Assembly: GCA_964426385.1 (NCBI GenBank)
Contig: CAYRQF010000004.1
Coordinates: 12,573-76,572, forward strand
Reading direction: 5' to 3'
Source of the DNA: an uncultured Candidatus Saccharibacteria bacterium
GTDB lineage: Bacteria; Patescibacteriota; Minisyncoccia; Phycocordibacterales; CSBR16-119
Length of the DNA stretch: 64,000 nt
Part shown: piece by piece, positions 21,057 through 60,818 of the stretch
Layout: every line of letters begins with the position of its first letter
Numbering within the stretch: the first letter of the stretch is position 1
Program-made: the position numbers and the translations under genes
Notes under the pieces: model-generated
The model's input: the letters and a program-made list of their open reading frames with translations, nothing else
Told to the model about the DNA's origin: nothing
The model's database searches: none

Positions 21057-21866
21057 ATGAGAGCAAAGAAATCCCTCGGACAAAATTTTTTAAAATCAGC
21101 GAAAGCCCTAGGTGATATTGTGCGTGCCGGAAATGTCTCTCTAGGCGACATGGTTCTCGAAATCGGACCAGGGAAGGGGGCTCTCACCGAGAAACTCCTA
21201 GAAACAGGCGCAAAAGTTTTTGCAATTGAAAAAGATCGTGAACTGGTTCCTTTGCTTGCGGAGAAGTTCGCTACTTACATCGATTCTGGTAAACTAACTA
21301 TTGTCGAGGCAGATATTCTAGAATTCAATCCATTAGACTACAAACTACTTACTACAAACTACAAACTCATCGGCAACATTCCGTACTATATCACTGGTGC
21401 TATTATTCGGAAATTCCTGGAGTCAGATTACCAGCCGACTCTTGCGGTGTTCCTAGTCCAAAAAGAGGTTGCTGAACGGGTCATCGCCCGAGATAGCAAG
21501 GAGTCCATCCTGTCGCTGTCAGTCAAAGCCTATGGCAAGCCGAACATGATAGGTAAGGTTTCAAAGCGGTATTTTGCCCCAGAGCCGAAAGTAGACTCGG
21601 CCATCCTCCTCATAGCCGATATCAATAAAGATAATTTTAAAAACGTTAGAGAGATTGATTTTTTCAGCGTGGTAAAAACTGCCTTCGGGCAGAAAAGGAA
21701 GACTTTAGTTAAAAACCTCGAGAATCTGGGCCTAAATAAGGAAATAATCATGAAAAGCCTCACAGGTAATGGCGTCCCTGACAAAGCTAGGGCCGAAGAT
21801 CTATCTATAGAGACATTTATACAGCTGAGTAAATCCCTCTTTCCCCAAAACGGCACACGGAAATAG
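21057..21866 (+). CDS. rsmA: 16S rRNA (adenine1518/1519-N6)-dimethyltransferase
   Basis: KSLGQNFLKS...VLEIGPGKGALTEKLLE matches the KsgA/RsmA SAM-binding signature. Confidence 0.9.
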   Translation: MRAKKSLGQNFLKSAKALGDIVRAGNVSLGDMVLEIGPGKGALTEKLLETGAKVFAIEKDRELVPLLAEKFATYIDSGKLTIVEADILEFNPLDYKLLTTNYKLIGNIPYYITGAIIRKFLESDYQPTLAVFLVQKEVAERVIARDSKESILSLSVKAYGKPNMIGKVSKRYFAPEPKVDSAILLIADINKDNFKNVREIDFFSVVKTAFGQKRKTLVKNLENLGLNKEIIMKSLTGNGVPDKARAEDLSIETFIQLSKSLFPQNGTRK

Positions 21867-21889: not shown

Positions 21890-22252
21890 GTGAAATATAT
21901 AAGACCAGTATTAATTATTTCTCTTGTAGTCATTCCGGCAATCACATTTGCATTTTCGCTATCACCATTGAAACCTCTGGGTGGTAAAATCATAACAGCT
22001 CCTACGCCTGGAGTTTCGTGTCCAGCCGGTAAACAACCAGGCAGTCCTTTTACTGTTGTTCCAGCAGGTAGTGGGCCATCTTGGCTTTTGGTTGGGGACT
22101 ATCATCCTATTTCAAACCACTTTATGTTAGCGCCCAACGAATGGATACTAGGGCTTTATATAGCAACTCCTTTACCGGAATGCACAACACAGTCACTACC
22201 TCCAGTACCGGTAAGTGGCTACAGAACATTCTTTAACGGAACTTCGCGTTAA
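21890..22252 (+). CDS. small secreted hypothetical protein (first gene of secretion-like cluster)
   Basis: N-terminal signal peptide MKYIRPVLIISLVVIPAITFA and a Pro/Gly-rich mature region. Confidence 0.5.
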   Translation: MKYIRPVLIISLVVIPAITFAFSLSPLKPLGGKIITAPTPGVSCPAGKQPGSPFTVVPAGSGPSWLLVGDYHPISNHFMLAPNEWILGLYIATPLPECTTQSLPPVPVSGYRTFFNGTSR

Positions 22253-22261
22253 TACTTAGCC

Positions 22262-23167
22262 ATGATTTCAAAATACCTCCCAAGTAAGAAATTCGTCAAA
22301 GTCATGGGCGTGGTAATAATTACCGGCGTCGTGATTTTGGCGGTAGCTATGCTCGTCAGTCGTCGGCAAACTTTTGAGAATAAAAACGATGAGTCTCTAT
22401 TTCTCGTTGAGGGTGCAATAGAGAATTTTTATAACACAGATACGGATAAGGACGGAGTCTATGATTGGGAAGAGGGTCTGTGGGGAACGGATCCATTCAA
22501 TAAAGACACTGACAGTGACGGGGTGACAGACGGAGAAGAGATCGGTTCTAACAAAGAAGAGATACGCGAGAAGAATAATCTCGGGGGGGAGGTCACCGCC
22601 TCTGAGGACTTGAATCAGACTGAGATATTTGCTCGGCAACTATTCTCAGCAGCATCACTTGCCGGACAGCAAGGCGGCCTTTCTCAGGAGTCTATGGAGG
22701 CGTTCTCTAAATCTTTTGGTGGTGCCATTTCCGACTCCAAGATAAAAGATCCTTTCACATTGTCTGATCTAAAGCTTACAGCCGTGAGTCCTGTCGACTA
22801 CAAGACCAGCCTCGGTGAAGCTTTTGACCCATACTTGCAAGCCGGGATTAATCCACTCAACGTTATATATAGATTCTCTAATGGCGACACTGCAGTTTCT
22901 GGAGATATAGATCAGCTTTCGGAGATTTATAACGGTATCTCGAATTCTTTGCTTGCGATTCCAACACCGCATAACGCCGCTGGCATCCAGTTGTCTTTGA
23001 TAAACACAACAGCAAAACTCTCTTTGGCATTTATAAACATGAAACACATAGAAGATGATCCGATACTCGCCGTCGTTGGTTTCTATCAGTATCAGGAATA
23101 CTCAGTAGAGCTCGAGAATACCCTCGAAAAATTGAAGAGTTATTTTAACTCAAGTGGTATAATCTAA
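22262..23167 (+). CDS. membrane-anchored hypothetical protein with Asp-rich Ca-binding-like repeats
   Basis: N-terminal TM segment. DTDKDGVYDWEE...DTDSDGVTDGEE resembles thrombospondin-type-3/dockerin-like DxDxDG motifs. Confidence 0.55.
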   Translation: MISKYLPSKKFVKVMGVVIITGVVILAVAMLVSRRQTFENKNDESLFLVEGAIENFYNTDTDKDGVYDWEEGLWGTDPFNKDTDSDGVTDGEEIGSNKEEIREKNNLGGEVTASEDLNQTEIFARQLFSAASLAGQQGGLSQESMEAFSKSFGGAISDSKIKDPFTLSDLKLTAVSPVDYKTSLGEAFDPYLQAGINPLNVIYRFSNGDTAVSGDIDQLSEIYNGISNSLLAIPTPHNAAGIQLSLINTTAKLSLAFINMKHIEDDPILAVVGFYQYQEYSVELENTLEKLKSYFNSSGII

Positions 23168-23176
23168 TCGTATTTT

Positions 23177-25465
23177 ATGAAATTCGCAATTAAGCTACTC
23201 AAGAAAACATTCTGCCTCGTCCTGATTGCATCACTGTTCAGTCAGACTGCGCTAGTTTTTTCTCCTGAGTATGTGGAGGCTCAAGGGGTGGGCGGGGGCG
23301 CCTCAGGACAGGTTAGCACAGGCTTCGGAGCCTCGGGCATAATAGGTACCGCTCTAAACTGTTCAGGTGTGATGGATAAGCTGGCCGGCGCACTCAGCGG
23401 CCTGTTCAAAGTTACTGTAAAAGAAGTGCCTGTAGGGGATAATACAAACAACACTAAAGAGGGTTGCCTTGACAGTATCGCTCACGAAATCGTCGTCCGT
23501 ATCATGGATAAGATAACTCTAGCTACTGTTGATTGGATCAATAATGGTTTCGAGGGTCAGCCACTTTTCCTAGAAGACCCTCAGAAATTCTTTGAAAACG
23601 TGGCCGCTCGCGAGATTAACTCTCTGACCGGTTGGTTTACAGCTAGCCCAGAGGGCTACCCGTTCGGGCAGATTGTTATGACAACAATACTTACGAATCT
23701 ACAATCACAGTTCTCCCAGAACGTTCAGTTCTCACTGAACGAAGTATTGGCACATGGAACATATGAAGATTTCAGATTCAATTTCAATGTCGGCGGATGG
23801 GCCGGCTATTCAGCTTTTTATAAACCAAATAACAACCCTTTTGGTAACTATTTACTTGTTAACCGAGAACTCGGTAGGAAGATCGGAGGGACGACTATTA
23901 CTGTCGGTGACAACTATAGTAAACAGATTCAGCAGTCTGGAGGATTCTTGAATCAGAGAAAGTGTGTAGTGTCAGGAACAGGTAACAACGACTATATCCC
24001 AGAAGACGATGAGTCAGGGTACCATATACCATCAGGTGGCATGCCTACGATCGCCCTCTGGGAGTTCTTGATTGGCGCCGATCAGGGTACACCGGCATTT
24101 CAGAGCGTTTACGACCAACTCCAGCCGGGATTCACTGGACCACTCACCGCACAGGCCACAGACGTTCAGGCTCAGATAGAAAACTATGAACTACGCAGTA
24201 CATGTCGCGAGTGGAAAACTATTACGCCAGGCAAGGTGGTTTCAGATCAGCTGACATCCGCACTCAACATACCTACGAATCAGTTGATACAGGCCGACGA
24301 GGTCAGTGAGAACCTCGCGCTCATTTTCGACGCGTTACTACTTCAGTTGGTAAACACAGGACTACGATCCCTCGACGGGGATGATCCTTCTACGAACGTT
24401 GCGTTGGCACAGGTCCAGGGCTTACAGCCAGGGCAGGTTTCAAACGGTCAGACCCCTCCTCCATCGGTTGATACAATAACTGGAACAGGATATTCACAAG
24501 AGCCATTAGTTCTGGTGCAACAGTCCTATATTCAGCAGGCTCAGCAAGCTATGCCAGTTCTGGATAATTTAATACGTAAGATTAAAGCTTTGGATTATTG
24601 TGTACCCGGACCGCACCCTTCTTGGGTTGATGAGGCTCAGCAAAACTTAGAGAATTCATTACTCAGTGTCGGGGCTTTTGCCTCCAGTAACCCAGACCCT
24701 CAGGACGCCGAAGATGAGAATCAAGATTACTACGCTAGCGTTATCCAGAGTCTAACCGGTATAACAATAGAACAAAGCCCGGCGATGCATAACCATACTC
24801 AGTTTATGGATTTTATGAACAACCTTTACGCAAAATATTCCGAAAAGATGCTAAATCCTAGTGACGCTGGATATAATCGATTCTTGACCCCGCCTTCTAC
24901 CAGAATATTCCTGGAAAATCTATTGAATGAGATGCAGGTTTACCAAGCCTCGTATGATGATCTAAATGAATATCTTAATAACATTACCTCATATTTACCA
25001 ACACTTATATCTATAGAGGCAACTATAAATAACATCGCACAGACTAACGGTGGAATAGTTGATCCGACCAACCCACAGGTTCAGGCGCAGATATCATTGT
25101 TTGAGAGTATCAATAGTCATTTCGCCACGGAAGCACAGCTCAGTGATTTGCAGACAAATTACGTATTGTTCCAGAACAGGGAGACCACAGTAAACAGTCA
25201 TTTGGATAGCTGTATAACCGAAACGGTGGTTGGGCCATACAATAATCCGAATAATAGGGTGGCTTATCCAGCTGCGATATTCCCATATGTACACAGTGTC
25301 TCATTGGTACCACTTCCGGGCCCGAACGACAGCTTCTTCGATGGAATTCAATTTGCTGGCAATACAAACAACGGCAACATAGATGTTACTTTTGGTGGGG
25401 TCAATATCAATGCAGGTGCGACACTTGACACATTCGAAGACCAGGTTCTCCAGTCCATCTACTAG
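23177..25465 (+). CDS. large secreted hypothetical protein (762 aa, Gln/Asn-rich)
   Basis: Signal peptide MKFAIKLLKKTFCLVLIASLFSQTALVFSPEYVEA. No recognisable catalytic motifs. Confidence 0.6.
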   Translation: MKFAIKLLKKTFCLVLIASLFSQTALVFSPEYVEAQGVGGGASGQVSTGFGASGIIGTALNCSGVMDKLAGALSGLFKVTVKEVPVGDNTNNTKEGCLDSIAHEIVVRIMDKITLATVDWINNGFEGQPLFLEDPQKFFENVAAREINSLTGWFTASPEGYPFGQIVMTTILTNLQSQFSQNVQFSLNEVLAHGTYEDFRFNFNVGGWAGYSAFYKPNNNPFGNYLLVNRELGRKIGGTTITVGDNYSKQIQQSGGFLNQRKCVVSGTGNNDYIPEDDESGYHIPSGGMPTIALWEFLIGADQGTPAFQSVYDQLQPGFTGPLTAQATDVQAQIENYELRSTCREWKTITPGKVVSDQLTSALNIPTNQLIQADEVSENLALIFDALLLQLVNTGLRSLDGDDPSTNVALAQVQGLQPGQVSNGQTPPPSVDTITGTGYSQEPLVLVQQSYIQQAQQAMPVLDNLIRKIKALDYCVPGPHPSWVDEAQQNLENSLLSVGAFASSNPDPQDAEDENQDYYASVIQSLTGITIEQSPAMHNHTQFMDFMNNLYAKYSEKMLNPSDAGYNRFLTPPSTRIFLENLLNEMQVYQASYDDLNEYLNNITSYLPTLISIEATINNIAQTNGGIVDPTNPQVQAQISLFESINSHFATEAQLSDLQTNYVLFQNRETTVNSHLDSCITETVVGPYNNPNNRVAYPAAIFPYVHSVSLVPLPGPNDSFFDGIQFAGNTNNGNIDVTFGGVNINAGATLDTFEDQVLQSIY

Positions 25466-25543
25466 CGTGGTATTTACACACATATTTTACCTAGAACCAC
25501 TTGGCCAGGTGGTATAATCTGGTCATTGCACTAGGCAGTTTAT

Positions 25544-27709
25544 TTGCGCCTTTTTATAATGAAGAAATTTTTCCTCTCACTCATTATCGGGTTACTCATA
25601 TTTGGTCCTGTTACGGGGTCCGTGCCTTTGGCGCACGCTCAAGTGAATCCGAGCGAGAACCCTTATCAGAGTTATGAGAACGAAGTAGGTGAGTGCTGGG
25701 CACTGAACAAGGGTATCGACATAGGCATGTGTTTCGCCTGGGTTATGTACTTCTTCGCTTGGATCACCAGTAGCTTCGCCGAGCTTACTGCTATGCTCAT
25801 GGACTACTTCCTAGCGTACTCTCTCGATAGTGGGTCATATAGTGGAGCCAACAATCAGTTCGTGGAGATGGGTTGGTCTATCATCAGAGATATCGCGAAC
25901 ATTTTCTTCATATTTACACTTCTCTATATCGCCATCCGTCATATATTGCAGATGGGCGGGAGCGATACGAAAAAACTGCTCACGAGTCTCATCATCGCGG
26001 CGCTACTCATCAACTTCAGTTTGTTTTTTACCAAAGTCATCATCGACAGTAGCAACATTTTAGCCAGGGCGTTCTATAACAATATCGTGGTAGAGAATGA
26101 TGACAACCTCGACCATAAATCCATTTCTCAAGCACTCGTTTCTCAGGTGAACCCGCAGAAACTCATATCATCAGACATGTTCAAGCCGGTCCCAGCTCCA
26201 GGAAGACTTCCGACCGAGCCTGATGCCGGATGGCTCATCACAATATTTTTCCTTGCGACCATCGTGAACATCGCTATGGCTTGGATATTCCTGAGTACAT
26301 TTTTGCTATTTATAGCGCGCGTTATCGGACTCTGGTTCATGATGATATTCTCGCCGATTGCTCTCGCTTCCAGGGCTATTCCCGGAGCTGAGGGTATGCT
26401 CGGGGATTTTGGTTGGAGTGGTTGGATCAAGAGCACACTCAAACTCGCTTTCATGGCGCCGATATTCGTGTTCTTCCTTTTCCTCCTCACGATGTTTTTG
26501 AACGTTGCGCTCCAGTCAGTTACGGTAGAGGTGGACCAGAGCACGATGCAACGCATCATGTCTGTGCTCATTCCTTTCATGGCTATTATCATCATTATGA
26601 CAAAGGCCAAAGACACTGCTACTGAGATGGCCGGAACGTTCGGTCAGGCAGTATTGAGTGGTGTCGGTAAACTTGCCGGGTTCGCAGTCGGCGCTGCGGG
26701 TGTCGGTCTTGCGGGAACGGCAATGGTAGCTAGGGGAACCATCGGCCGTGCCGCCACTGCCGCCGCTGGCAGTAGGAGTTTCCAAGAAGCTGCATCAAAG
26801 AACAAATACTTTCTTGCTAAAAGTTTGTATAAGGGGGCTCAAGCCGCTTCAAAGGGAAGTATGGACGCGAGAAATAGTACTGGCTTTAGGAGAACTACAG
26901 GTTTGCTAGCCTCAGGCTTGGCAGCGGCTGGTATTGCAACCAAAGCAGACCTTGGAAAAGGTACTACAAGAGGTGGGTACTCACAGCGGTTAGAAGAATA
27001 TCAAAAGAAGAAAGAGAAATTCAAGGAAGATCTCAAGTCTTCGGATCATGATACTTTTAGTGTTACTGATCCTAGAGATCCAACCAAAACCCTTACAACA
27101 TCAGTCATTCAAGCCGAAACCGAATTTTTGAAAGCTCAGAATGAAGCAAAGAGAAAAGACGAAAATAAAAATATAAAAAGTGCTACTATCGGCAACCCAA
27201 GGGAGGATGTCGTTAAAGATTATGATGGTTGGGTAAAAGAAAAAGAAAAAGCCGAAAAAGCCCAGAAACAAGCAGAGATCGATTTTGCAAACGTTCAGAG
27301 GGACCCAGCTTCAACACTTGTGCAAAAAGATGCTGCAAGGGTAAAGAAAGACTATTTTACCGACAGGCATGCTGAAATTAGAGGTGTGGTAAAAGGAATA
27401 GAGGAAAACTGGGAAACTGAGGAGAAGATCTTCAAGGGAATCAAGAGAGAGCAGACCAAACATGACACTAAGGTGTTACAACAATACGCCGAGTCCGTTA
27501 AACCAGTCTCACTCGACACATCTTCTCTTGGCGCAGGTATAAAAACTGGCAGTATGGTTGCACTGGCGCAACTATATGGTTTGGCAAATGGATCAGAAGG
27601 CACATACGTTGCAGGAAGAAGTGCAGCTTCTGCAGAACTTGCACGTTCTGCCGAGAAGGAGGAGAAGAAAGCTCAGGCTGAGGCGAAAAAAGACGACAAG
27701 AAAACATAA
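25544..27709 (+). CDS. polytopic membrane protein, putative VirB6/TrbL-like channel component with Lys-rich cytoplasmic tail
   Basis: Signal/TM segment followed by at least six hydrophobic helices over aa 60-400, then a long hydrophilic KE-rich C-terminus. The size and topology fit TrbL/VirB6. It lies two genes upstream of the VirB4-like ATPase. Confidence 0.45.
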   Translation: MRLFIMKKFFLSLIIGLLIFGPVTGSVPLAHAQVNPSENPYQSYENEVGECWALNKGIDIGMCFAWVMYFFAWITSSFAELTAMLMDYFLAYSLDSGSYSGANNQFVEMGWSIIRDIANIFFIFTLLYIAIRHILQMGGSDTKKLLTSLIIAALLINFSLFFTKVIIDSSNILARAFYNNIVVENDDNLDHKSISQALVSQVNPQKLISSDMFKPVPAPGRLPTEPDAGWLITIFFLATIVNIAMAWIFLSTFLLFIARVIGLWFMMIFSPIALASRAIPGAEGMLGDFGWSGWIKSTLKLAFMAPIFVFFLFLLTMFLNVALQSVTVEVDQSTMQRIMSVLIPFMAIIIIMTKAKDTATEMAGTFGQAVLSGVGKLAGFAVGAAGVGLAGTAMVARGTIGRAATAAAGSRSFQEAASKNKYFLAKSLYKGAQAASKGSMDARNSTGFRRTTGLLASGLAAAGIATKADLGKGTTRGGYSQRLEEYQKKKEKFKEDLKSSDHDTFSVTDPRDPTKTLTTSVIQAETEFLKAQNEAKRKDENKNIKSATIGNPREDVVKDYDGWVKEKEKAEKAQKQAEIDFANVQRDPASTLVQKDAARVKKDYFTDRHAEIRGVVKGIEENWETEEKIFKGIKREQTKHDTKVLQQYAESVKPVSLDTSSLGAGIKTGSMVALAQLYGLANGSEGTYVAGRSAASAELARSAEKEEKKAQAEAKKDDKKT

Positions 27710-27717
27710 GTAAATCT

Positions 27718-28353
27718 ATGGATCTAGAATTCAAGAAAAAAATAGAAGAGCGCATGAAACAGCTTCCCTCTGTCCTGGCCAAGGCCATCAAGGCTTCGAA
27801 CTGGGAGAGTATCGTTTTCGATATTGGTCGCAGACACTCGCTTCATGTCGACGACATCGGCGACCTACAGAACGAACTTATCCTCGTCCTAACTGGCATC
27901 GTTCATCCTGACGAATTCCGTCATATTGTCATCAGTGAGATCGGTATCCCCGAAGACAAAGCCGACGTTATCATCGAAGAGATCAACGACCAAGTAAACG
28001 AGAAGATAAAAAACGAACTGAAGTCCATTATGGACGACGCAGACGAAGACAAAACTGTCGATACCGAGAGCGGGGAACTTGCTGGGTCTGAGAAGGAAGT
28101 CCTTAGAGATAGTGGTATCCGCCTCGGAGATGACGTCGATGAGACGGCGAATCAGCACACTCCTCCGGTAGCAGACGGTGTAGAAGCGCCGACTGTCGCA
28201 GTGCAGGCTCCGAAACCAGAACCAAAGCCTGTGAATCCAGTAACTGCGAAAATTATCGCCGAGCCTCAGGTGTTCAAGACTCGCATCTCTCCGGCAGAAG
28301 TCGGTGAGGCCGGCAGGGGATTCAGTGATCCTTACCGCGAGCCAGTAGAATAA
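27718..28353 (+). CDS. hypothetical acidic protein
   Basis: ORF in an operon-like arrangement, separated by an 8-nt gap from the VirB6-like gene. Confidence 0.5.
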   Translation: MDLEFKKKIEERMKQLPSVLAKAIKASNWESIVFDIGRRHSLHVDDIGDLQNELILVLTGIVHPDEFRHIVISEIGIPEDKADVIIEEINDQVNEKIKNELKSIMDDADEDKTVDTESGELAGSEKEVLRDSGIRLGDDVDETANQHTPPVADGVEAPTVAVQAPKPEPKPVNPVTAKIIAEPQVFKTRISPAEVGEAGRGFSDPYREPVE

Positions 28354-28447
28354 TTAGCTGATGGCTTATAGCTGTTAGCTTATAGAGAAATAATAAATTC
28401 CTAAAAGCTAAACGCTATCCGCTATAAGCTCGTGTTATAATACATTC
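28354..28447 (+). promoter_or_regulatory. Conserved promoter/operator module (copy A): GCTTATAGC palindromes followed by the extended -10 TGTTATAAT
   Basis: atggcttatagctgttagcttatagag...cctaaaagc...cgctataagctcgtgttataata is shared with 31695-31790. Related half-copies lie at 9337-9366 and 9730-9761. Confidence 0.55.
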
Positions 28448-28867
28448 ATGCGATTCCAAGTTCCGCAATTTATTGATATTGAAGACAAGATTTTTGGACC
28501 TTTTACGTTCAAGCAGTTTGTCTATCTCGCGGGAGGGGCTGGATCAGCCTATGCTATCTGGAAGCTCTTGCCGACACTTATCGCAGTTTTCCTCGTGCTC
28601 CCTATAATCGGGCTCGCTCTCGCGCTGACATTTTATAAAGTGAACGGCAAGCCATTTATCGAAGTCTTACAGGCCTATGCTTCGTATTCGACAAAGAGCA
28701 AGCTTTTTATTTGGAAACAGAGAAAGATTGAGAAAAAGAAGAAATTTGCCGAAGCTCCGAAGGAGAGTCGTCATCCGATGTCTAACATCCCTAGACTTAC
28801 CGAGAGCAGGCTGTCGGATATTTCATGGAGTTTGGATGTGCTCGATATGGAGAAGCGCGATAAATAA
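28448..28867 (+). CDS. small two-TM membrane protein (possible VirB3/TcpE-like component)
   Basis: Hydrophobic hairpin FVYLAGGAGSAYAIWKLLPTLIAVFLVLPIIGLALALTFY. A small membrane protein immediately upstream of VirB4 is typical of type IV secretion loci. Confidence 0.35.
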   Translation: MRFQVPQFIDIEDKIFGPFTFKQFVYLAGGAGSAYAIWKLLPTLIAVFLVLPIIGLALALTFYKVNGKPFIEVLQAYASYSTKSKLFIWKQRKIEKKKKFAEAPKESRHPMSNIPRLTESRLSDISWSLDVLDMEKRDK

Positions 28868-28975
28868 TCCCAAAACTGATTTTACTACCACAAAATGATA
28901 ATTTTAAATCACAACACAAAATTGGTCGGATCAGAATTTATTAGCATGATCAAAAATCAGTAACGGGACAAGTAT

Positions 28976-29626
28976 ATGGCATTAAACGCTAAAGCATCAC
29001 AAGATTTTGTTCCGATCAAAGCCATCCAAGATGGTGTGGTGGTCCTCAAGGATGGGGGACTTCGTGCCATTCTTATGGCGTCATCTGTTAACTTGTCGCT
29101 CAAGTCCGAGGATGAACAGACAGCGATCATCATGCAGTTTCAGAATTTTCTGAACACCCTCGATTTTTCACTGCAGATTTGCGTCCAGTCGAGAAAGTTT
29201 AATATTACTTCGTATGTAGGACTTCTCGAAGAGAGACTCAAGGAGCAATCCGAGCCACTTCTCAAGATTCAGACTGAGGAATATATCAAGTTCATCAAAG
29301 AATTTACCGAGTCGACGAACATCATGACGAAACACTTCTTCCTGGTCATCCCGCTCCAGCCACTCCAGTCAGTTAGTGGGTCAGCTACGGGACTCCTGGA
29401 TAAGGTTTTGCCGACTAATAAGAAAGAAAACTTGGCGGAGAAGGAGAAAGCTTTTAGTGAGGAGCGTTCCCAGCTCGAACAGAGAGTCGCCCTGACCGTT
29501 CAGGGGCTTTCGCGATTGGGTATCAGAACTGTTCAGCTCAAAACCGAAGACGAGGTCGAGCTTTTTTACCGAGTGTTCAATCCCGGAGATGCCGAGAGTG
29601 CTATCGATATAACCAAAGGACAATAA
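28976..29626 (+). CDS. hypothetical protein, translationally coupled to the VirB4-like ATPase
   Basis: Its stop TAA is separated by a single nucleotide from the next ATG (caaTAAtATG). Confidence 0.5.
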   Translation: MALNAKASQDFVPIKAIQDGVVVLKDGGLRAILMASSVNLSLKSEDEQTAIIMQFQNFLNTLDFSLQICVQSRKFNITSYVGLLEERLKEQSEPLLKIQTEEYIKFIKEFTESTNIMTKHFFLVIPLQPLQSVSGSATGLLDKVLPTNKKENLAEKEKAFSEERSQLEQRVALTVQGLSRLGIRTVQLKTEDEVELFYRVFNPGDAESAIDITKGQ

Positions 29627-29627
29627 T

Positions 29628-31694
29628 ATGGGAATATTTGATCTTATAAAAGGAACAAAGTCGTCCAAGAATCCGAAGAGGGAAATAATGCCCGTACTGC
29701 CGGAGGAGATTTATAAGGCGGCAACACTGGAGCTCCAGGATATTCTCGCGCCGTCTGCACTCAAAATCTCGCCAAAAGCTCTGAACCTCGGCGATAAAAT
29801 CGCACGTACATACTTCGTCATTTCTTATCCTAGATTTCTCTCAGATAACTGGTTCACCCCGATCATCAACCTCGATAAAATATTTGATATCGCTATCCAT
29901 ATCCATCCTCTCGATACGAACACCATACTCAGGAAATTCCAGAAGAAAGTTGCCGAAGTCCAAAGCCAGGTCAACGTTCGCGAATCCAAAGGTCTCGTCC
30001 GTGACCCTGTCCTCGATACTGCATATCAGGATCTCGAGGGGTTACGCGACAGTCTCCAGCAGGCTCAGGACAAAATGTTCGATGTCGGGCTCTATATTAC
30101 AGTCTACGCAGACTCGATGCAGGAGCTTTCGAAGATAGAGAATGAGATCAAGTCTATACTAGAGGCCAAGCTCGTGTATATCAAGCCGGCACTCTTCCAG
30201 CAGGACGTCGGGTTCGCCTCTGTCGCACCACTCGCAACGGATTTCCTCGCCGTTCATCAGAAGATGAACACAGAACCGCTATCTTCGATATTCCCATTCG
30301 TTTCTTTCGACCTGTCTTCTGACAAAGGGATTCTCTATGGTATCAACCGTCACAACTCTAGTCTTATTATTTTCGATCGCTTCTCTCTAGAGAACTATAA
30401 CTCGGTTACTTTTGCCAAGTCCGGTTCTGGTAAGTCATACTCGACCAAGCTAGAAATCCTCCGAACACTCATGTTTGACTCAGAAGTCATCGTTATCGAC
30501 CCTGAGAGAGAATACGAGTACCTATCCGAGGCCATCGGTGGACGGTATTTCAATATCTCGCTCTCATCTGAGCACCATATCAACCCTTTTGACCTACCGA
30601 TACCAACCGAAGACGAGACTCCAGAGGATGTACTCCGCGCTAACACTATCCAGCTCGTGGGAATGTTTCGTATCATGCTCGGAGGGCTAACTCCGGAGGA
30701 GGATGCGATTATCGACAAGGCAGTGACCGAGACATATGCGCTCAAAGACATTACTTCTGACTCGGATTTTGCGAATATCGAGCCACCACTGCTATCGGAC
30801 TTCGAGATGGTTCTGTCGGGTATCGATGGATCAGAGTCCATCATGACTCGTCTTACTAAGTACACAAAGGGTTCGTGGAAAAATTTCATCAACCAGCCGA
30901 CAAACGTCGACATCAACAAGCGATTTATCGTCTTCTCCGTACGAGACATGGAGGATGACCTAAAACCTGTCGCCATGTATATCGTTACGCACTTCATATG
31001 GAACGCCGTCAGGAAGAATCTGAAGAAACGTCTCCTTATCGTCGACGAGGCCTGGTGGATGATGAAGTCAGAAGATACGGCGTCTTTCCTCTACTCTATC
31101 GCCAAGCGTGGACGCAAATATTTCCTCGGACTCTCAACTATCACTCAGGACGTTAACGACTTCGTGGCGTCTCAGTATGGTATGGCTATCGTCACGAACT
31201 CATCTATGCAACTACTTCTCAAGCAGTCTACTAGTTCAGCAGATGCACTACAGAAAGTGTTCAACCTGACCGATGAAGAGAAGTATCTTTTGCTCGAGTC
31301 AGAGGTAGGAGAGGGTATATTTTTCGCTGGATTGAAACACGTAGCCATAAAAATCATTGCCTCCTATACCGAAGATCAGATCATAACCTCAGATCCATCA
31401 CAGGTGCTCGCTATAAAAAAAGCCAAAGAGGAGTTCCGTGAGGGTGAGAAGGCTTTTCAGCAAGGAGAAACCGAGAGGATTCAAGGAGCGATCGATAGCC
31501 AACCAAAAGACGAGTATATTCCGTCCCAACAGCCAGAACCTGTAAGTCTAGAAAAAGAAATAGGGGATTCGCCAGAAGTTCTGACTCCTACACCAGATAA
31601 AAAGCCAAAAAACGAATCCGACAGTCTCGAAAGCTTCAGCGATGGGTTAGACAAAGAAATCGACGATCTCGAGAAGATGTTTAAAGACTACTAA
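29628..31694 (+). CDS. VirB4/TraE/TcpF-family type IV secretion ATPase (Gram-positive type)
   Basis: N-terminal FVISYPRFLSDNWFTPIINLD motif, Walker A FAKSGSGKSYST, the ...VIVIDPEREYEYL segment, and Walker B LLIVDEAWWMM. Confidence 0.8.
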   Translation: MGIFDLIKGTKSSKNPKREIMPVLPEEIYKAATLELQDILAPSALKISPKALNLGDKIARTYFVISYPRFLSDNWFTPIINLDKIFDIAIHIHPLDTNTILRKFQKKVAEVQSQVNVRESKGLVRDPVLDTAYQDLEGLRDSLQQAQDKMFDVGLYITVYADSMQELSKIENEIKSILEAKLVYIKPALFQQDVGFASVAPLATDFLAVHQKMNTEPLSSIFPFVSFDLSSDKGILYGINRHNSSLIIFDRFSLENYNSVTFAKSGSGKSYSTKLEILRTLMFDSEVIVIDPEREYEYLSEAIGGRYFNISLSSEHHINPFDLPIPTEDETPEDVLRANTIQLVGMFRIMLGGLTPEEDAIIDKAVTETYALKDITSDSDFANIEPPLLSDFEMVLSGIDGSESIMTRLTKYTKGSWKNFINQPTNVDINKRFIVFSVRDMEDDLKPVAMYIVTHFIWNAVRKNLKKRLLIVDEAWWMMKSEDTASFLYSIAKRGRKYFLGLSTITQDVNDFVASQYGMAIVTNSSMQLLLKQSTSSADALQKVFNLTDEEKYLLLESEVGEGIFFAGLKHVAIKIIASYTEDQIITSDPSQVLAIKKAKEEFREGEKAFQQGETERIQGAIDSQPKDEYIPSQQPEPVSLEKEIGDSPEVLTPTPDKKPKNESDSLESFSDGLDKEIDDLEKMFKDY

Positions 31695-31790
31695 CAGAGC
31701 TTACAGCGTATGGCTGTTAGCTTATAGAAATTCCACAAAATACCTAAAAGCAATAAGCTATACGCTAAAAGCTCGTGTTATAATATTTCC
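31695..31790 (+). promoter_or_regulatory. Conserved promoter/operator module (copy B)
   Basis: atggctgttagcttatagaa...cctaaaagcaataagctatacgctaaaagctcgtgttataata is homologous to 28354-28447. Confidence 0.55.
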
Positions 31791-32384
31791 ATGCCAAATA
31801 CCAAAAATGATGATGGGAATTCTATAAACCAGAATGATAAGACTACGCTCCATGGAGCTGGAGTCGACCTATCCGACACACCAGTCGAACCAGAGTCAGA
31901 AGGTGAAAAGATTGTCGACATAGACGGATCGATTCCTTTGGGGAGTGACCCAGATCTAGAGAAGTCCGGAGTCAAATTTGTAGAGGCCGATGTGCCTGTA
32001 ACAGACCTATCAGCGTTAGCCGAGAAAAAGGCCAAGACCGTAAGCTCAGCCGCCAAAGACCTCGAAGCAGAATTCCGGTCTGAGCTTGCTGATTTTAAGG
32101 GACCACTCAAGCCTGATGGTGAGAAAGCCGTTATGGAAAAAAGCGGAACACTGCGATCGATGCTTACTTTGGTCCGGGAGAAGCTCGGTCTGAAGAAGAA
32201 GACAGTAAAGTCAGAACTCGAGAGTCTAAAAAAGATGAAAGATGCTATCACCAAAGACATCACAACGATAAAAGAGCTCGAAGAGTCCGAAAACAAGATC
32301 AATACAGAGCTTGGTAAAATCGATGAGATAAAGAAAGAAGTAGAGGAGATAGAGAAGGACTTGGCGGATGATCTAAATAAATAA
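31791..32384 (+). CDS. hypothetical acidic coiled-coil protein
   Basis: K/E-rich heptad-like C-terminal half. Confidence 0.5.
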   Translation: MPNTKNDDGNSINQNDKTTLHGAGVDLSDTPVEPESEGEKIVDIDGSIPLGSDPDLEKSGVKFVEADVPVTDLSALAEKKAKTVSSAAKDLEAEFRSELADFKGPLKPDGEKAVMEKSGTLRSMLTLVREKLGLKKKTVKSELESLKKMKDAITKDITTIKELEESENKINTELGKIDEIKKEVEEIEKDLADDLNK

Positions 32385-32388
32385 AATC

Positions 32389-33375
32389 ATGAAGGCTTTG
32401 CAAATTATAAAATTGAGTGTAGTCGGATATATTTTTCTTGCACCTCTTTTTATATTTGCTCAAATGCCAGGTATAGAACAATCTTTTAGTTTGTCTTTTT
32501 CTCCACAGAACCCTAGCCCTGGAGAGTTGGTAACATTTGGGGTTTCCGCATATGAGTTCAATATAGATTTAGCAAACATCGTTTGGAGTGTCGATGGCAA
32601 ATCCGTTAAATCAGGTAAGGGGGTCAAAGGATTCACGTTTGAAGCCCCTGCCAATGGTAAATCTAGCACCATCTCTGTTGTGGTGTCGCCAGCCACTGGG
32701 ACCCCTATAGAGAAAAGCATAACCATTTCTCCTGCAGACATCGATCTCATATATGAGGTAATGGATGGTTACGTCCCGCCTTTCTACCGAGGAAAGATAC
32801 TGCCGATAAAACAGAGTCAGATCAAGGTGGTGGCTCTCCCGAACGTGAAGACGATGACAGGTGGGACAGCTAAAGCAAAAGATTTCGTATATACATGGCG
32901 CAAGGATAGTGAGAACCTCCCAGGACAGTCAGGGTTTGGACGCAGTAGTGTTACTTTTGTAAATGAGATACTCGACCGTGGAAATACTCTCGAGGTCTCA
33001 GCGACAAACGGTCTCAAGAAAGTTGACGGGGCGATAGTTATTAATTATCTCGAGCCGGAAATACTTTTTTATGAATATGACATATTGACCGGAGTTAAAT
33101 ACCAGCGAGCATTTAGGTCAGGAGAGAATATTAAGCAGCCAAAACTTAGCATCATTGCAGAGCCGTACTTTCTGTCACGGGACTTTATGCCGAACAAGGA
33201 TATCGCGGGCACTTGGATGCTAAATGGTCAGAAGGCTACTCCTGTCGCCAAGAACAATCTTATTATCAATACCAGCGCAACGTCTGGCAAAGTCGATATA
33301 AGTTTCGAGTATAACGAGGCGAAACGACTGTTTCGTAGTTTTAAGAAATCACTGAGTCTTAACTTGGTCAACTAG
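32389..33375 (+). CDS. secreted hypothetical protein
   Basis: Signal peptide/TM IIKLSVVGYIFLAPLFIFAQ. The composition is beta-rich. Confidence 0.55.
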   Translation: MKALQIIKLSVVGYIFLAPLFIFAQMPGIEQSFSLSFSPQNPSPGELVTFGVSAYEFNIDLANIVWSVDGKSVKSGKGVKGFTFEAPANGKSSTISVVVSPATGTPIEKSITISPADIDLIYEVMDGYVPPFYRGKILPIKQSQIKVVALPNVKTMTGGTAKAKDFVYTWRKDSENLPGQSGFGRSSVTFVNEILDRGNTLEVSATNGLKKVDGAIVINYLEPEILFYEYDILTGVKYQRAFRSGENIKQPKLSIIAEPYFLSRDFMPNKDIAGTWMLNGQKATPVAKNNLIINTSATSGKVDISFEYNEAKRLFRSFKKSLSLNLVN

Positions 33376-33377
33376 CA

Positions 33378-34958
33378 ATGCAGAGCTCACTAAAGAAAAT
33401 TTTTATACTTTCCACTATACTCCTCATCGCAGGATTCATTTTCTCTAGGCCGGTATCTGCTCAGAACGCGAACTGCAACGTCATCGATGCGGACATACGA
33501 CATAACATTACGAATGTTTTAGATCCATCGGGGGACGAAGACGGAGATGGCGAAACTAACTTCCAGGAGGAATTCTTTGTCGACGGTAATCCGCCCCTCG
33601 TATATCTCGATATAAAAACCCTCGGTTGTATAGACACTGACGATGTCTACGATATGCAGCTTTCTCTGACAGAGACAGATATACCACCAGTTATAGATCC
33701 TAACGATAACGTCGACGATATCATTGAACTGGACGATTGGGAAATAAACGTCGAAGACAATAATGACTTTACTGTAGTTTATCTCGCGGGGGAAGATGAG
33801 TGCGGAGGAGGTGGAGAGCCAGATTGTCAGTACCATATCGAGACAGACGATGGAAATTCTTCTAATGATCCTTGGAGCGGTCTTTGGTACAGTTGCGATG
33901 TTACCTGCGAAGAAGATTGGGCATACATAGGTATGATTCCTTACGGTCAGAACCACCCTCAGGATACAGCAGGGAATAATACTAATACGAATACTAGCCT
34001 AGGTACCTTGGCGTCAGATGCATACCTCGCACCTCTCCCAGGACTTGAGGGGCAACCCGGAACACTGAACGGTTTCCTCGAGGGACTATTCCAGGTGCTC
34101 ATAGTCGTGGCCGGACTTCTCGCCATGATTATGCTCGTAGTTGGAGCCATAACATATCTATCGAGTGATGCGTTTAGTGGCAAGACTGAGGGCAAAGACA
34201 TGATGTTGTCTGCGGTATTCGGCCTCATTCTCGCACTTGGCGCCTGGGTTATCATAAACGCCATCAATCCGAACCTCGCATCAAATCTCGGTATCACTAT
34301 CCCAGTCGCAAGACTGTCTATGCTTGAAGGAGATTCAGCCGTTTACTCTCCCGGGGCGACAAGCTCAGAAGGTGGAACAATTACAGGGTTCAGTTTGCCC
34401 ACAGATATCGGGCTCTATTGCCCGCTTTCGGGTGGATCAGGGCAAGTGCCGGCTATTATCGACAGCTTCGTCGGTAAGGTGGCATATCGATGGGGAGGTA
34501 AGGGCGGCCCTTTGCCAGCTGGACAGAATTACCCACTCAGTCCTTTTGAGACAGAGAACCCCTTTAAGTGTACAGATGATACGGGTGCGCAGGTTCCATG
34601 TAATACGTTCTGTCCGTCAGGAAATGCTTGTTTAGATTGCTCAGGATTTACGAACCATGTTAGGAAATGTGCTGGACTTCCATACTTTGCAACGGGGACA
34701 TACGGCATGACCCAGGAAGCCTCAGCCGAAACAGTTGAGATGAATACGCTTAACGCTACTGGTACACAGATAGGGAGCTATGTTTTGGTCCCGGGCGATA
34801 TACTTGTTTGGAATGGTCACGTCGTCATCTATTATGGTAATGGCAAGATAGCAGAATCTTCTGGAGGTACTCAGGGTCGCGCCAAGAACGGTAACGTGAA
34901 CCTGTCTAGTATCAAGAAATACAAGAACAAGATAACGCATATAATAAAAGTCCAATAA
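33378..34958 (+). CDS. secreted protein with pilin-like double-TM hairpin and C-terminal NlpC/P60 (C40) cell-wall hydrolase domain
   Basis: Signal peptide. Mid-protein hydrophobic hairpin LFQVLIVVAGLLAMIMLVVGAITYL...MMLSAVFGLILALGAWVIINAI resembling VirB2/TrbC pilins. C-terminal YRWGGKG...LDCSGFTNHV...GDILVWNGHVVIY carries the NlpC/P60 Cys-His signature. Confidence 0.6.
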   Translation: MQSSLKKIFILSTILLIAGFIFSRPVSAQNANCNVIDADIRHNITNVLDPSGDEDGDGETNFQEEFFVDGNPPLVYLDIKTLGCIDTDDVYDMQLSLTETDIPPVIDPNDNVDDIIELDDWEINVEDNNDFTVVYLAGEDECGGGGEPDCQYHIETDDGNSSNDPWSGLWYSCDVTCEEDWAYIGMIPYGQNHPQDTAGNNTNTNTSLGTLASDAYLAPLPGLEGQPGTLNGFLEGLFQVLIVVAGLLAMIMLVVGAITYLSSDAFSGKTEGKDMMLSAVFGLILALGAWVIINAINPNLASNLGITIPVARLSMLEGDSAVYSPGATSSEGGTITGFSLPTDIGLYCPLSGGSGQVPAIIDSFVGKVAYRWGGKGGPLPAGQNYPLSPFETENPFKCTDDTGAQVPCNTFCPSGNACLDCSGFTNHVRKCAGLPYFATGTYGMTQEASAETVEMNTLNATGTQIGSYVLVPGDILVWNGHVVIYYGNGKIAESSGGTQGRAKNGNVNLSSIKKYKNKITHIIKVQ

Positions 34959-34962
34959 TCTC

Positions 34963-36588
34963 ATGCAAAACAAAAAACTTTTCAAAATTCTAGGACTCAT
35001 CGCACTTTTTCTCCTCATTATTTTCTCATGGGTGGTTATACGCGATGCCCAAAGGAAAAAGATTCTTAACACTCCGACACCGACAGGACTCGAGAATCCT
35101 TTTGGTGTGAGTCCTGACGGAGAAGGGTTTCCTCGAAGCGGGGAGGACGATGTCGACATCGGTACTCCCGATGAGACACCAGTAACAGGGGGGACTACAG
35201 GGACTAGCGTCATAGTTGTCGAGGATAATCCGGCCCTCAAACAACTATATACGAAACCCGTCGCGGGATTCACTTTCTGGAACGAAGAGCGAGAGCTACC
35301 AGAGGAACTCTCGACGACACCATCCGCATCGGTTGTCGAGGTTTATGATTTCTCAGGCTACAAAACAGTACGATTCGGCGACAAAGCTGACGAGATAGTG
35401 ACTATCAAGACTGTATTAAATAGGCAGACTCCAAGCCCGGGTCTCATCATCGACAGCAATTACGACACAGACATGAAGAACGCCGTCGTAGATTTCCAGA
35501 ACAGAAATGGTCTCGGAGGAGATGGTGTAATTGGGCCAAAGACTTATGCCAAATTCAATAGTTTTCAGGGTATCACCACGTTCTCTTCTGTAAAGAAGCC
35601 GATAAACACAGAGACGGTACCGATGGTTCGCTTCGTTGATGCCGGATCGGGCATCATGTCTGATCAAGCAATTCGAAAAGCAGAAGAGGTGCGCAAGATT
35701 ACTACGGTGTCGGTTCCCAGGGTAGCTGAAGCATTCTTTGATAATACAAAAAATAACGTTGTGATGAGATATGTCAAAGATAATGTCATCCAGACTTATG
35801 TAGCCAAACTTACTTTTGCCAAGATTGACCCCAACCTCACCTGGGCTGAGAAGGAGGCCATAACCAAGATTGCCGAGGTTACGGGCGAGTTTCTACCAGA
35901 GAACATCGACACTGTCGCGATGTCTCGCGACAAAAAGAGTTTGTTTTACATGACGCGAGTCGGTAGTGGTTCAGCCGGGCTCGTATATAACTTTTCGAGT
36001 AAGACCAAGAAGCAGGTATTCGACTCACCACTTCGAGAGTGGCTCATCGACTGGGGTAATGATATAAAAGTAAATCTCACAACAAAGGCTTCAGGTCAGG
36101 CTCTCGGGTATTCGTTTGTTCTCGACACGAAGACGGGTTCTTTCTCTAAGACTCTCGGAGGGGCAAACGGGCTCACGACTCTAATGAGTCCAGATGGTAA
36201 GAAGGTTCTGTACGCTGAAGCAACTGGAGGAAGCCTTTCTACATATGTCACCGAGCTCAGTACTGGCAAGAAAACTTCCATATCTCCATCTGCCATGCCA
36301 GAGAAGTGTGTTTGGACACGAGACTCAAAAGCCATATACTGTGCCGCCCCGATCAAGAGCGTATCGTTTGCCTATCCCGACGATTGGTATAAGGGAAAGG
36401 TAAGCTTCAGTGATGCACTGTGGATGATCGACGCTACAGACTATGTCGGTAACATAGAGTATGATTTCAAATCAAAAAACGGCGTTGATGTGGACGCCAT
36501 GAATCTCCAGCTCCGGGATGAGGAGGACTACATAGGCTTCATCAACAAGAAAGATGGAAGTCTCTGGGGACTAGATTTATCGAGATAG
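34963..36588 (+). CDS. exported protein with peptidoglycan-binding (PG_binding_1-like) motif and TolB-like beta-propeller region
   Basis: N-terminal TM. NYDTDMKNAVVDFQNRNGLGGDGVIGPKTYAKF matches the PG-binding helical-bundle motif. C-terminal repeats such as SPDGKKVLYAEATGGSLSTYV resemble TolB/WD40-like blades. Confidence 0.5.
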   Translation: MQNKKLFKILGLIALFLLIIFSWVVIRDAQRKKILNTPTPTGLENPFGVSPDGEGFPRSGEDDVDIGTPDETPVTGGTTGTSVIVVEDNPALKQLYTKPVAGFTFWNEERELPEELSTTPSASVVEVYDFSGYKTVRFGDKADEIVTIKTVLNRQTPSPGLIIDSNYDTDMKNAVVDFQNRNGLGGDGVIGPKTYAKFNSFQGITTFSSVKKPINTETVPMVRFVDAGSGIMSDQAIRKAEEVRKITTVSVPRVAEAFFDNTKNNVVMRYVKDNVIQTYVAKLTFAKIDPNLTWAEKEAITKIAEVTGEFLPENIDTVAMSRDKKSLFYMTRVGSGSAGLVYNFSSKTKKQVFDSPLREWLIDWGNDIKVNLTTKASGQALGYSFVLDTKTGSFSKTLGGANGLTTLMSPDGKKVLYAEATGGSLSTYVTELSTGKKTSISPSAMPEKCVWTRDSKAIYCAAPIKSVSFAYPDDWYKGKVSFSDALWMIDATDYVGNIEYDFKSKNGVDVDAMNLQLRDEEDYIGFINKKDGSLWGLDLSR

Positions 36589-43138: not shown

Positions 43139-43147
43139 TGAAAAAAT

Positions 43148-43184
43148 AAACAAAACGCTCGGAATCATCCGAGTGTTTTGTTTT
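43148..43184 (+). terminator. Rho-independent terminator
   Basis: aaacaaaacgctcggaatcatccgagtgttttgtttt. Confidence 0.6.
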
Positions 43185-43307
43185 GACCAGAGGGTTTTCC
43201 ACATTGAGAATAGTAACTGTCAATTTATCCGTAAGGTAGGTGGTATCATATAAGGAGCAACAAATTATATTTTTATTATTTTATTAATTGTTTTTATTTT
43301 ATAAATT

Positions 43308-59326: not shown

Positions 59327-59358
59327 TAAAGCTGTGTTCAACTCAACCAACCAAAAAC

Positions 59359-60213: not shown

Positions 60214-60305
60214 ACATTCGACGCAAGCTGCCGCCGTCCCTTTGGGATTGCGGCAGCTTTTGCATTCAGGTGGTATAATTTAGGTATTAGAAATATCATA
60301 TTTAT

Positions 60306-60809
60306 ATGAAGAATAATAATGTCGTCATAGGGCTTCTGGTTGTTGTTATTGTGATTTTGGCGCTTATCGCTTTCAAGAAACCAGCGAATGCTCCGGTTGA
60401 TACTCCGGACGAAAATACCGGTGAGACAGAACTCGATGGAACAAAGCTTTATCGAGGTGAAGGATTTTCATTCCGACATGATAAGCTCGCAAGTGTTCGA
60501 GTCGAAGGTGCAGGAACTTATGCGCCTCTATATACAATCTCTAGATCTGATGATGGAGGAGCGGCAGACCATCTCAGCTTCTTTCCAGCAGGAATGCCGA
60601 GTTTGAGTGAGTACAATCCATGCGGGGAGATGGAGGTTAAGAGTATGACTATCGGAGATAAACTATTTTCTTATTGTGACAGCAAAGCTGAACCAATGCG
60701 TACTTATATTTACAAAGATGGAGAGAAGGCCTTGATGATTAATGTAAACATGACAGGGGATAAGCCAGCTACTGGCTACATTGATCTCGCTTCGATTGAT
60801 CTGAAATAA
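60306..60809 (+). CDS. membrane-anchored hypothetical protein
   Basis: N-terminal TM VVIGLLVVVIVILALIAF. Confidence 0.5.
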   Translation: MKNNNVVIGLLVVVIVILALIAFKKPANAPVDTPDENTGETELDGTKLYRGEGFSFRHDKLASVRVEGAGTYAPLYTISRSDDGGAADHLSFFPAGMPSLSEYNPCGEMEVKSMTIGDKLFSYCDSKAEPMRTYIYKDGEKALMINVNMTGDKPATGYIDLASIDLK

Positions 60810-60818
60810 TAACTCTAG

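Follow-up and report, generated by a model that had tools for sequence, protein, structure and literature searches.

A chromosomal gene cluster that very probably encodes the Paceibacteria form of the Patescibacteria type IV secretion system

Introduction

The Patescibacteria (candidate phyla radiation, CPR), which are ultra-small and depend on a host, account for much of bacterial diversity. Before theirs, no type IV secretion system (T4SS) had been shown to be essential for the survival of its owner (PMC12857230). This report concerns a cluster of twelve genes, numbered g1 to g12 in their order on the DNA, at positions 21890-36588 of a 64 kb stretch (hereafter the window, meaning the whole stretch of DNA analysed), and assesses its gene content, its conservation across related genomes and its likely function as a T4SS.

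Among the described systems, the closest is that of Southlakia epibionticum, where genes SEML1_0004-0019 encode an unusual, Gram-positive-like T4SS that has pilins and is without coupling or relaxase proteins, and where transposon sequencing (Tn-seq) found nearly all genes of the system, including those for VirB4, PrgI, pilin and hydrolase, to be essential for epibiotic growth (Wang et al. 2023, PMC10633639). According to Table S2 of that study, the genes ahead of VirB4 encode, in the direction of transcription, a VirB6-like giant, an NTF2-like protein, another large membrane protein, PrgI and a protein without annotation, and those after VirB4 encode a giant carrying a DD-peptidase tail, a triple lysozyme/cysteine-peptidase protein, and exported immunoglobulin (Ig)-like and prealbumin-like proteins; six small pilins of family PF18895 are encoded on the other strand. 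On a wider scale, a monophyletic VirB4 clade of the Patescibacteria, nested within the MPF_FATA type, occurs in 2,407 of 3,035 genomes (~80 %) (Quinonero-Coronel et al. 2025, PMC12102498). In that survey, TrsD is the most abundant neighbour of virB4, followed by PrgI, VirB6 and VirB2-like pilins; hydrolases of the CD419 type are tied to virB4 mainly in the Paceibacteria, KsgA is a frequent neighbour, and relaxases are almost absent. T4SS pilins are also among the top-expressed genes of unknown function in Paceibacterales growing with methanogens (PMC10936435).

The cluster considered here is another member of this known, published system, and all of its defining features that were testable fit. 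In full, it is very probably a chromosomal, vertically inherited Patescibacteria T4SS in its Paceibacteria form, descended from the MPF_FATA conjugation machinery of single-membrane bacteria and likely serving contact-dependent exchange with a host cell. An earlier note, written from the DNA alone, had recognized a T4SS-like envelope apparatus, and it had also held that most components are without recognisable homology and that the composition is atypical of described T4SSs. Those last two views do not stand, in that the Patescibacteria T4SS had already been published (PMC10633639, PMC12102498, PMC12857230) and that about half of the products have testable T4SS homology, the six being VirB6/TrbL, PrgI/VirB3, a TrsD-like protein, VirB4, a VirB2-type pilin hairpin and NlpC/P60.

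Conservation of the locus across the Paceibacteria

The cluster was compared with the best 80 of more than 577 VirB4 relatives present in GTDB species genomes (loci L001-L080). These relatives share 72-87 % identity in VirB4 and all derive from Patescibacteria-type or unclassified metagenome-assembled genomes (with Paceibacteria, Nomurabacteria and Parcubacteria labels), which is consistent with a place of g8 in the Patescibacteria clade. Wherever the flank reaches, in up to 80 species, the genes follow one another on a single strand as uvrD-ksgA-g2-g3-g4-g5-g6-g7-VirB4-g10-g11-g12, such that ten of the twelve cluster genes, all except g1 and g9, share both order and orientation. Homologues were found in 79 of the 80 loci for g7, 76 for g6, 70-72 for g12, 62-63 for g4 and 31-32 for g2. 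Co-conservation in related CPR genomes had been set beforehand as a check on the earlier note, and its result, ten genes in up to 80 Paceibacteria species, upholds the cluster as a unit. Because this synteny is kept and the ATPase is a true VirB4, chance adjacency of the cluster genes is excluded.

The components have diverged at very different rates. Median identity across the loci is 76 % for VirB4, 56 % for g7 and 49 % for g6, as against 50 % for KsgA and 53 % for UvrD, the adjacent housekeeping genes; the envelope parts stand at 35 % (g12), 34 % (g11), 33 % (g4) and 31 % (g10), and g2, g3 and g5 at ~26-28 %. From these medians, the cytoplasmic motor is more constrained than the housekeeping genes beside it, and the surface parts are fast-evolving.

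The motor and channel core

The earlier note's identification of g8 as a Gram-positive-type VirB4 with intact Walker motifs holds. The protein matches the NCBIfam model conju_CD1110 at 4.5e-114 and 382 bits, over a cutoff of 325, along model positions 183-733, with further NCBIfam matches, in descending order of score, to the VirB4 of Mycoplasma integrative and conjugative elements (ICEs), TraC and VirB4_CagE, and with a match to the Pfam TraG P-loop family at 4e-26. Its closest match in the PDB is Thermoanaerobacter VirB4 (4AG5, 1e-44), followed by TrwK, and Walker A (AKSGSGKS at residue 263) and Walker B (LLIVDE at residue 469) are both intact.

The preceding gene, g7, which the earlier note had left out of its component list, matches the NCBIfam models VirB4_plasma (positions 102-235, 1.7e-11), TrsD (4e-8) and CD1110 (positions 2-118, 2e-6), the TrsD and VirB4_plasma matches lying under whole-family cutoffs, as is expected of a fragment. 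Since g7 covers positions 2-118 of the CD1110 model and g8 positions 183-733, VirB4 is, judging from these aligned positions, split into a TrsD-like N-terminal part and the ATPase proper. A single nucleotide separates the g7 stop from the g8 start, and the two remain separate open reading frames (ORFs) in 79 of the 80 loci. The possibility that g7 is a duplicate of the g8 N-terminus was excluded, in that direct BLASTP of g7 against g8 gave no similarity.

The small two-transmembrane protein of the earlier note, g6, is confirmed by its match to Pfam PrgI (E 2.7e-10, 41 bits against a cutoff of 27) and is the membrane partner of VirB4. The polytopic protein with a Lys-rich tail, g4, has seven hydrophobic segments, and its tail is 14 % Lys. 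Pfam searches of g4 and of 19 homologues from related loci gave zero matches, and the match of g4 to NCBIfam ICE_Mbov_0396_TM (5e-4) is under the curated cutoff; more distant database homologues, P0202 and P0203 (E 1e-28 to g4), exceed the Pfam TrbL/VirB6 cutoff, with 32.6 and 30.3 bits against 25.9. Because these homologues pass that cutoff, g4 is considered VirB6/TrbL-like, in agreement with the earlier note. A profile of g4 run against PDB sequences matched only through its low-complexity tail.

A pilin hairpin joined to exchangeable wall hydrolases

The sole pilin of the cluster lies within g11, the protein that the earlier note had read as a fusion of a pilin-like transmembrane region with an NlpC/P60 hydrolase. 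That reading is borne out by a match to Pfam T4SS_pilin (PF18895) over residues 229-296 at 27.5 bits, against a cutoff of 26.6, by transmembrane segments at 240-258 and 275-293, and by a Pfam NlpC/P60 match of 22 bits, just under the cutoff of 23, all 13 homologues of the NlpC/P60 type retaining the catalytic Cys421 and His481. The protein also matches the NCBIfam Mbov_0395 pilin-like model at 3.8e-4. By analogy with the topology of VirB2, both domains flanking the hairpin would lie outside the cell.

A hidden Markov model (HMM) of the pilin core matched g11 alone in the window and one gene each in 69 of 73 loci, the matched proteins ranging from 134 to 774 aa and most being extended at the C-terminus by 120 aa or more. 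In related loci, the syntenic g11-type gene sits two positions after VirB4 (for example, L009:11873-13717, L013:7688-8893, L032:12829-13878 and L047:10717-12228). Of 41 such syntenic homologues, 36 have T4SS_pilin by Pfam, and their C-terminal modules include NlpC/P60 (12), VanY (6), YkuD (4), Peptidase_M15_4 (3), Amidase_5 (3) and SLT types (3). By sequence, the C-domains fall into at least ten unrelated clusters plus singletons, several groups being without a Pfam match. On a quick neighbour-joining (NJ) tree of VirB4, which is only a rough guide given how conserved VirB4 is, the C-domain types are interleaved, and free small pilins are concentrated in the more divergent branch. In the limited literature searched, no published description of a fusion between pilin hairpin and hydrolase was found, the fusion remark in PMC12102498 being about VirB3-VirB4 only.

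A bolder view can be put forward, according to which the VirB2-type hairpin of the Paceibacteria is a membrane or stalk anchor, and not a pilus subunit, that presents an exchangeable peptidoglycan-cleaving head, this head being an offensive drill that is specific to the host wall and determines host range, as opposed to a housekeeping VirB1 acting on the wall of its own cell, and g5 taking the place of the coupling protein. The offensive role is suggested because head types vary and interleave on the VirB4 tree while VirB4 barely changes; taken as a whole, the proposal is speculative and rather unlikely.

Table 1. Genes of the cluster and other features of the window.
Feature	Position	Strand	Length (aa)	Gap to next cluster gene (nt)	Description
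Xer-like recombinase	2911-3831	-			Phage_integrase and N-terminal SAM-like domains
Large charged ORF	13518-19040		1840		Low-complexity; upstream of uvrD
UvrD/PcrA	19067-21007				Core gene, upstream flank
KsgA/RsmA	21057-21866				Core gene, upstream flank
g1	21890-22252	+	120	9	Small secreted protein; sporadic accessory gene
g2	22262-23167	+	301	9	Bitopic membrane protein; two DxDxDG calcium-binding-type repeats; extracellular C-terminal domain
g3	23177-25465	+	762	78	Secreted; C-terminal half a long helical bundle, confident in the model; N-terminal half conserved, poorly modelled
g4	25544-27709	+	721	8	VirB6/TrbL-like polytopic membrane protein; ~300 aa Lys/Glu/Ala-rich tail
g5	27718-28353	+	211	94	Cytoplasmic; ~100 aa helical module, disordered linker, nearly invariant C-terminal DPYRExxE motif
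g6	28448-28867	+	139	108	PrgI family (VirB3 equivalent); small two-transmembrane protein
g7	28976-29626	+	216	1	TrsD-like protein; detached N-terminal domain of VirB4
g8	29628-31694	+	688	96	VirB4 ATPase, Gram-positive/MPF_FATA type; ~80 aa acidic C-terminal extension
g9	31791-32384	+	197	4	Acidic, charged protein; lineage-specific insertion outside the conserved set
g10	32389-33375	+	328	2	Membrane-anchored or secreted; three Ig-like beta-sandwich domains; conserved extracellular T4SS partner
g11	33378-34958	+	526	4	Signal peptide, acidic variable N-domain, VirB2-type hairpin (~216-298), NlpC/P60 (~418-498)
g12	34963-36588	+	541		N-terminally anchored; PG_binding_1 (143-197); ~330 aa conserved C-terminal domain
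Two large ORFs	40784-46337		784, 1009		Nearly without family match; second with Gly_rich_2 domain only
Por_Secre_tail protein	49055-50071	-	338		Type IX secretion sorting domain
L2	57300-58154				Ribosomal protein
Insertion-like region	58250-61863		358, 284		Two ORFs without Pfam match, and SAICAR synthetase
SAICAR synthetase	60892-61863				Within the preceding region
S3	62920-63612				Ribosomal protein

Function and rival explanations

In the mechanism proposed by analogy with other T4SSs, a VirB4 hexamer would dock on PrgI (VirB3) and VirB6, powering assembly and transport through a membrane channel; the hairpin-anchored hydrolase would open peptidoglycan; and the Ig-like, peptidoglycan-binding and helical proteins might form the wall-spanning, host-contacting part. 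The most likely outcome would be contact-dependent exchange with a host cell, of protein or another macromolecule, in either direction, in support of an epibiotic lifestyle.

That the machine does not conjugate follows from the absence of a relaxase and of a nearby coupling protein within the 64 kb and from the fixed place of the locus between housekeeping genes. Pfam scans of the larger ORFs of the window found no relaxase, and a Walker A scan for a coupling ATPase in the annotated ORFs outside the cluster returned strict P-loops only in a ComM-like protein and in UvrD, plus loose chance matches; the earlier note, too, had reported neither protein from the window. Its description of the cluster as a chromosomal, non-conjugative envelope machine is likewise sustained by the housekeeping flanks, of which the uvrD-ksgA flank is itself syntenic, and by the true VirB4. 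Contact-dependent host exchange is thus favoured over conjugation, and it is very improbable that the cluster is a conjugative element, or the decaying remnant of a Tn916/CTn-type ICE, lodged in the chromosome. In favour of such an origin, conjugative VirB4, TrsD and the pilin and transmembrane proteins of a Mycoplasma ICE are the families matched best, and a tyrosine recombinase is encoded in the window; the recombinase, however, is Xer-like, lies upstream with 18 kb that include PNPase and other core genes between it and the cluster, and is judged unrelated to the T4SS. Furthermore, up to 80 species retain this gene arrangement together with uvrD and ksgA beside it, VirB4 exceeds both of those housekeeping genes in conservation, GC content is flat over the window including the cluster, and the published phylogeny is of a monophyletic clade inherited within classes (PMC12102498). 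Within the 64 kb, the conserved core-gene flanks and the missing relaxase and coupling protein essentially refute an ICE remnant. Scarcely any probability attaches to the suggestion that the neighbours are unrelated and that the ATPase is of the FtsK/HerA type with some other role. Weak Pfam matches of g8 to AAA_10 and HerA/DUF87 exist, as is expected for the superfamily, but VirB4-specific models score far higher and over a curated cutoff, no FtsK or HerA chain of the PDB was matched at E 0.001 or better, the matches there being VirB4 proteins only, and the synteny in 80 genomes contradicts unrelated neighbours; together, the CD1110 score, the PDB matches and the synteny refute this explanation.

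Two further explanations accept the T4SS and differ over what it does. In one, which is possible albeit unlikely, the system works inward, as do archaeal Ced and Helicobacter ComB, and brings in DNA, RNA or nucleotides from the host which the auxotrophic cells are unable to make. The lack of a coupling protein and a relaxase at the locus would suit import, as would the genes for ComM-like, RecJ and PNPase proteins elsewhere in the window, and a 2026 preprint describes a parasite of the Minisyncoccota that consumes the RNA of its host, with tubular structures that may be T4SS pili and with VirB4 linked to macromolecule transfer (10.64898/2026.06.21.733656). The match of g8 to the DNA-import ATPase CedB (2e-5) points the same way, but amounts to 23.5 bits against a cutoff of 700, a score far exceeded by those of conjugative VirB4 families; nor was any component that binds nucleic acid identified in the cluster. 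In Southlakia, moreover, deletion of comEC ends competence but not viability, and the T4SS is essential (PMC12857230), and because of this result DNA uptake for transformation is not the essential role of the T4SS. The other explanation, for which the probability is low, is an organelle for attachment and wall breaching that transfers no substrate, VirB4 powering only the assembly of a surface structure, and the hydrolase module holding and opening the host envelope. Hydrophobic-segment analysis places six of the twelve products outside the cytoplasm, homologues of g3 contain F5/8 type C and Ig-like binding modules, g10 has three Ig-like domains, the hydrolase module on the pilin hairpin varies by species, and divergence is much more rapid in the surface components (27-35 % identity) than in the cytoplasmic ones (56-76 %). 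Yet a full and highly conserved VirB6/VirB3/VirB4 channel core exceeds what an adhesin needs, and type IV pili are already adhesive in the Saccharibacteria (PMC12857230).

The preferred explanation, a Paceibacteria-form T4SS for contact-dependent host exchange, has several points to answer. No substrate, effector or coupling protein was identified, which leaves cargo and direction as matters of inference, and a VirB8-like (NTF2) component was not found by sequence. The sole pilin hairpin is flanked on either side by large domains of the 526 aa protein that contains it, and a classical VirB2 pilus may therefore not form. For the window proteins themselves, the assignments of g4, of NlpC/P60 and of the propeller discussed below are under curated cutoffs and draw on homologues, motifs and weak matches. 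Finally, essentiality has been established in the Saccharimonadia only, which is another class than the Paceibacteria (PMC10633639), and the absence of relaxase and VirD4 applies to the 64 kb window, not to the whole genome.

Partner proteins of the T4SS

The remaining products are mostly extracellular, and several belong to families for which no model exists. The earlier note had counted three secreted proteins at the start of the cluster, one with DxDxDG repeats, and g1, g2 and g3 do each have one N-terminal hydrophobic segment. In g2, that segment spans residues 14-32, and the repeats begin at residues 60 and 82; in a search of its profile against the PDB, the calcium-repeat region alone was matched (7c7r, E 9e-4). 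Neither the g2 nor the g10 profile matched VirB8, TraM or TcpC among PDB sequences. The secreted protein g3 is possibly an adhesin-like or tip-like surface component.

The cytoplasmic protein g5 has no transmembrane segment and no Pfam, NCBIfam or PDB match. Within its homologue alignment, D204, P205 and Y206 are conserved in at least 90 %, and the helical module is tandemly duplicated in some members. From this pattern, g5 looks like an adaptor, and its DPYRE tail is proposed to be a docking peptide.

For g10, no Pfam or NCBIfam model was matched, and the structural model has an Ig-like fold and not that of NTF2; the family comprises 2,353 clusters at 50 % identity with E<=1e-30 and is uniform in length. 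In g12, a transmembrane segment at 8-26 precedes PG_binding_1 (E 8e-9), and the conserved part is residues 213-541. The earlier note had described a peptidoglycan-binding and beta-propeller protein: its first half is secure, and its second half is probable at best, the C-terminal domain being a weakly supported beta-propeller in that PD40 was found in 4 of 36 homologues (best E 0.003, weak), as compared with PG_binding_1 in 6 of 36. Profiles of g3, g10 and g12 returned nothing informative from PDB sequences.

Two genes that the earlier note had listed as components, g1 and g9, do not belong to its conserved set, and besides g7 its list had omitted g5. For g1, tblastn gave no match in the 80 related loci. 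Positional counterparts with a signal peptide and an FGGxI motif occur only at L003:348-761, L004:1526-2020, L007:312-710 and L018:248-661, the L007 protein being matched by g1 at a phmmer E of 7e-5; this family of small secreted proteins thus occupies, in scattered loci, the space that separates ksgA from the conserved T4SS genes. Among the 80 loci, only L001, the closest relative, has a homologue of g9, whose family matches are all sub-threshold (Pfam Bacillus_HBL, 0.0016; NCBIfam sll0565, 0.006).

Nothing about the locus is categorically new; it offers a clean, very well conserved reference layout for the Paceibacteria. It also offers leads, namely the detached N-domain of VirB4, the hairpin with interchangeable wall hydrolases, and the partner families g10, g3, g5 and g12, which are without models and which any structural model of the machine must place.

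Layout of the window and neighbouring genes

The twelve cluster ORFs, all on the + strand, are tightly packed between KsgA and ClpP with gaps of 1-108 nt (Table 1), which confirms the co-directional, closely spaced arrangement of the earlier note. The products of g9 to g12 (197, 328, 526 and 541 aa) were reproduced by independent gene calls on identical public metagenome contigs. Scans for promoters and terminators gave counts at chance level (24 versus 24.6 expected, and 15 versus 13.9, respectively) and are uninformative on operon structure. Downstream, on the opposite strand, are the genes for ClpP, trigger factor (Tig), inorganic pyrophosphatase (PPase) and NusA. The larger ORFs elsewhere in the window encode, by Pfam, PNPase, a ComM-like Mg-chelatase ATPase, an M23/LysM peptidase, TIM, PGK, RecJ, EF-Tu and ribosomal proteins.

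Several other parts of the window are worth recording. Upstream of uvrD, a strongly charged, low-complexity ORF of 1840 aa has two short Gly/Ala-rich hydrophobic patches (~905-925 and 1100-1117); it has no Pfam or NCBIfam match and no counterpart in the related loci, whose flanks may stop short of it. Beyond the cluster lie the two large, nearly matchless ORFs listed in Table 1, and then a gene for a protein with a Por_Secre_tail domain, which is unexpected for a single-membrane CPR bacterium. The genes between L2 and S3 look like an insertion into the normally compact ribosomal protein operon.

Comparison with known systems

When set beside import systems, the cluster resembles Ced and ComB in being chromosomal and in having a VirB4-type ATPase without a relaxase. 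It differs from Ced, in that CedA-like components were not detected here and in that its CedB score is far under the cutoff. The module of the Mycoplasma ICE (Mbov_0395 pilin-like, Mbov_0396 transmembrane and Mbov_0397 VirB4 proteins) is weakly matched here in all three proteins by NCBIfam, the VirB4_plasma match being at 2.5e-79 and all three being under their cutoffs. Unlike this cluster, the Mycoplasma module is a mobile ICE in a wall-less host and hence is without wall hydrolase or peptidoglycan-binding parts.

The Gram-positive MPF_FATA systems, as exemplified by CD1110/Tn916-CTn, Trs of pGO1 and Prg/Pcf of pCF10, share more with the cluster, namely a VirB4 that is over the CD1110 cutoff, PrgI, a TrsD-like protein and a hydrolase of the NlpC/P60 type. 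A hydrolase of that type is found in Tn916 Orf14 and in CD419 as well. As in those systems, outer-membrane core genes of the VirB7/9/10 type were not detected in the cluster. In contrast to them, the locus has no relaxase, coupling protein (T4CP) or oriT context and does not form part of a mobile element, its VirB4 is split, and extra conserved envelope proteins are present. It also has a VirB2-type pilin domain, which is normally lacking there (PMC12857230).

The nearest likeness is to the Patescibacteria T4SS itself. In Southlakia, the six small pilins are free and encoded on the opposite strand, and there are two VirB6-like giants, an NTF2/VirB8-like protein and hydrolases of the lysozyme type, whereas here there is one pilin hairpin, embedded in a hydrolase protein, and an NTF2-like protein was not found by sequence; moreover, g2, g3, g5 and g12, which are without a match in family or structure databases, have no equivalent in the published annotation of the Southlakia locus. 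In common with Southlakia and the Patescibacteria T4SS at large, the cluster is chromosomal and is without a relaxase or a local coupling protein. The core order is that of Southlakia, running from a VirB6-like protein through PrgI, a TrsD-like protein and VirB4 to one or more wall hydrolases and exported Ig-like proteins, and the PF18895 pilin domain, the MPF_FATA-related VirB4 and the KsgA neighbour, the last as reported for the Paceibacteria, are those of the Patescibacteria T4SS.

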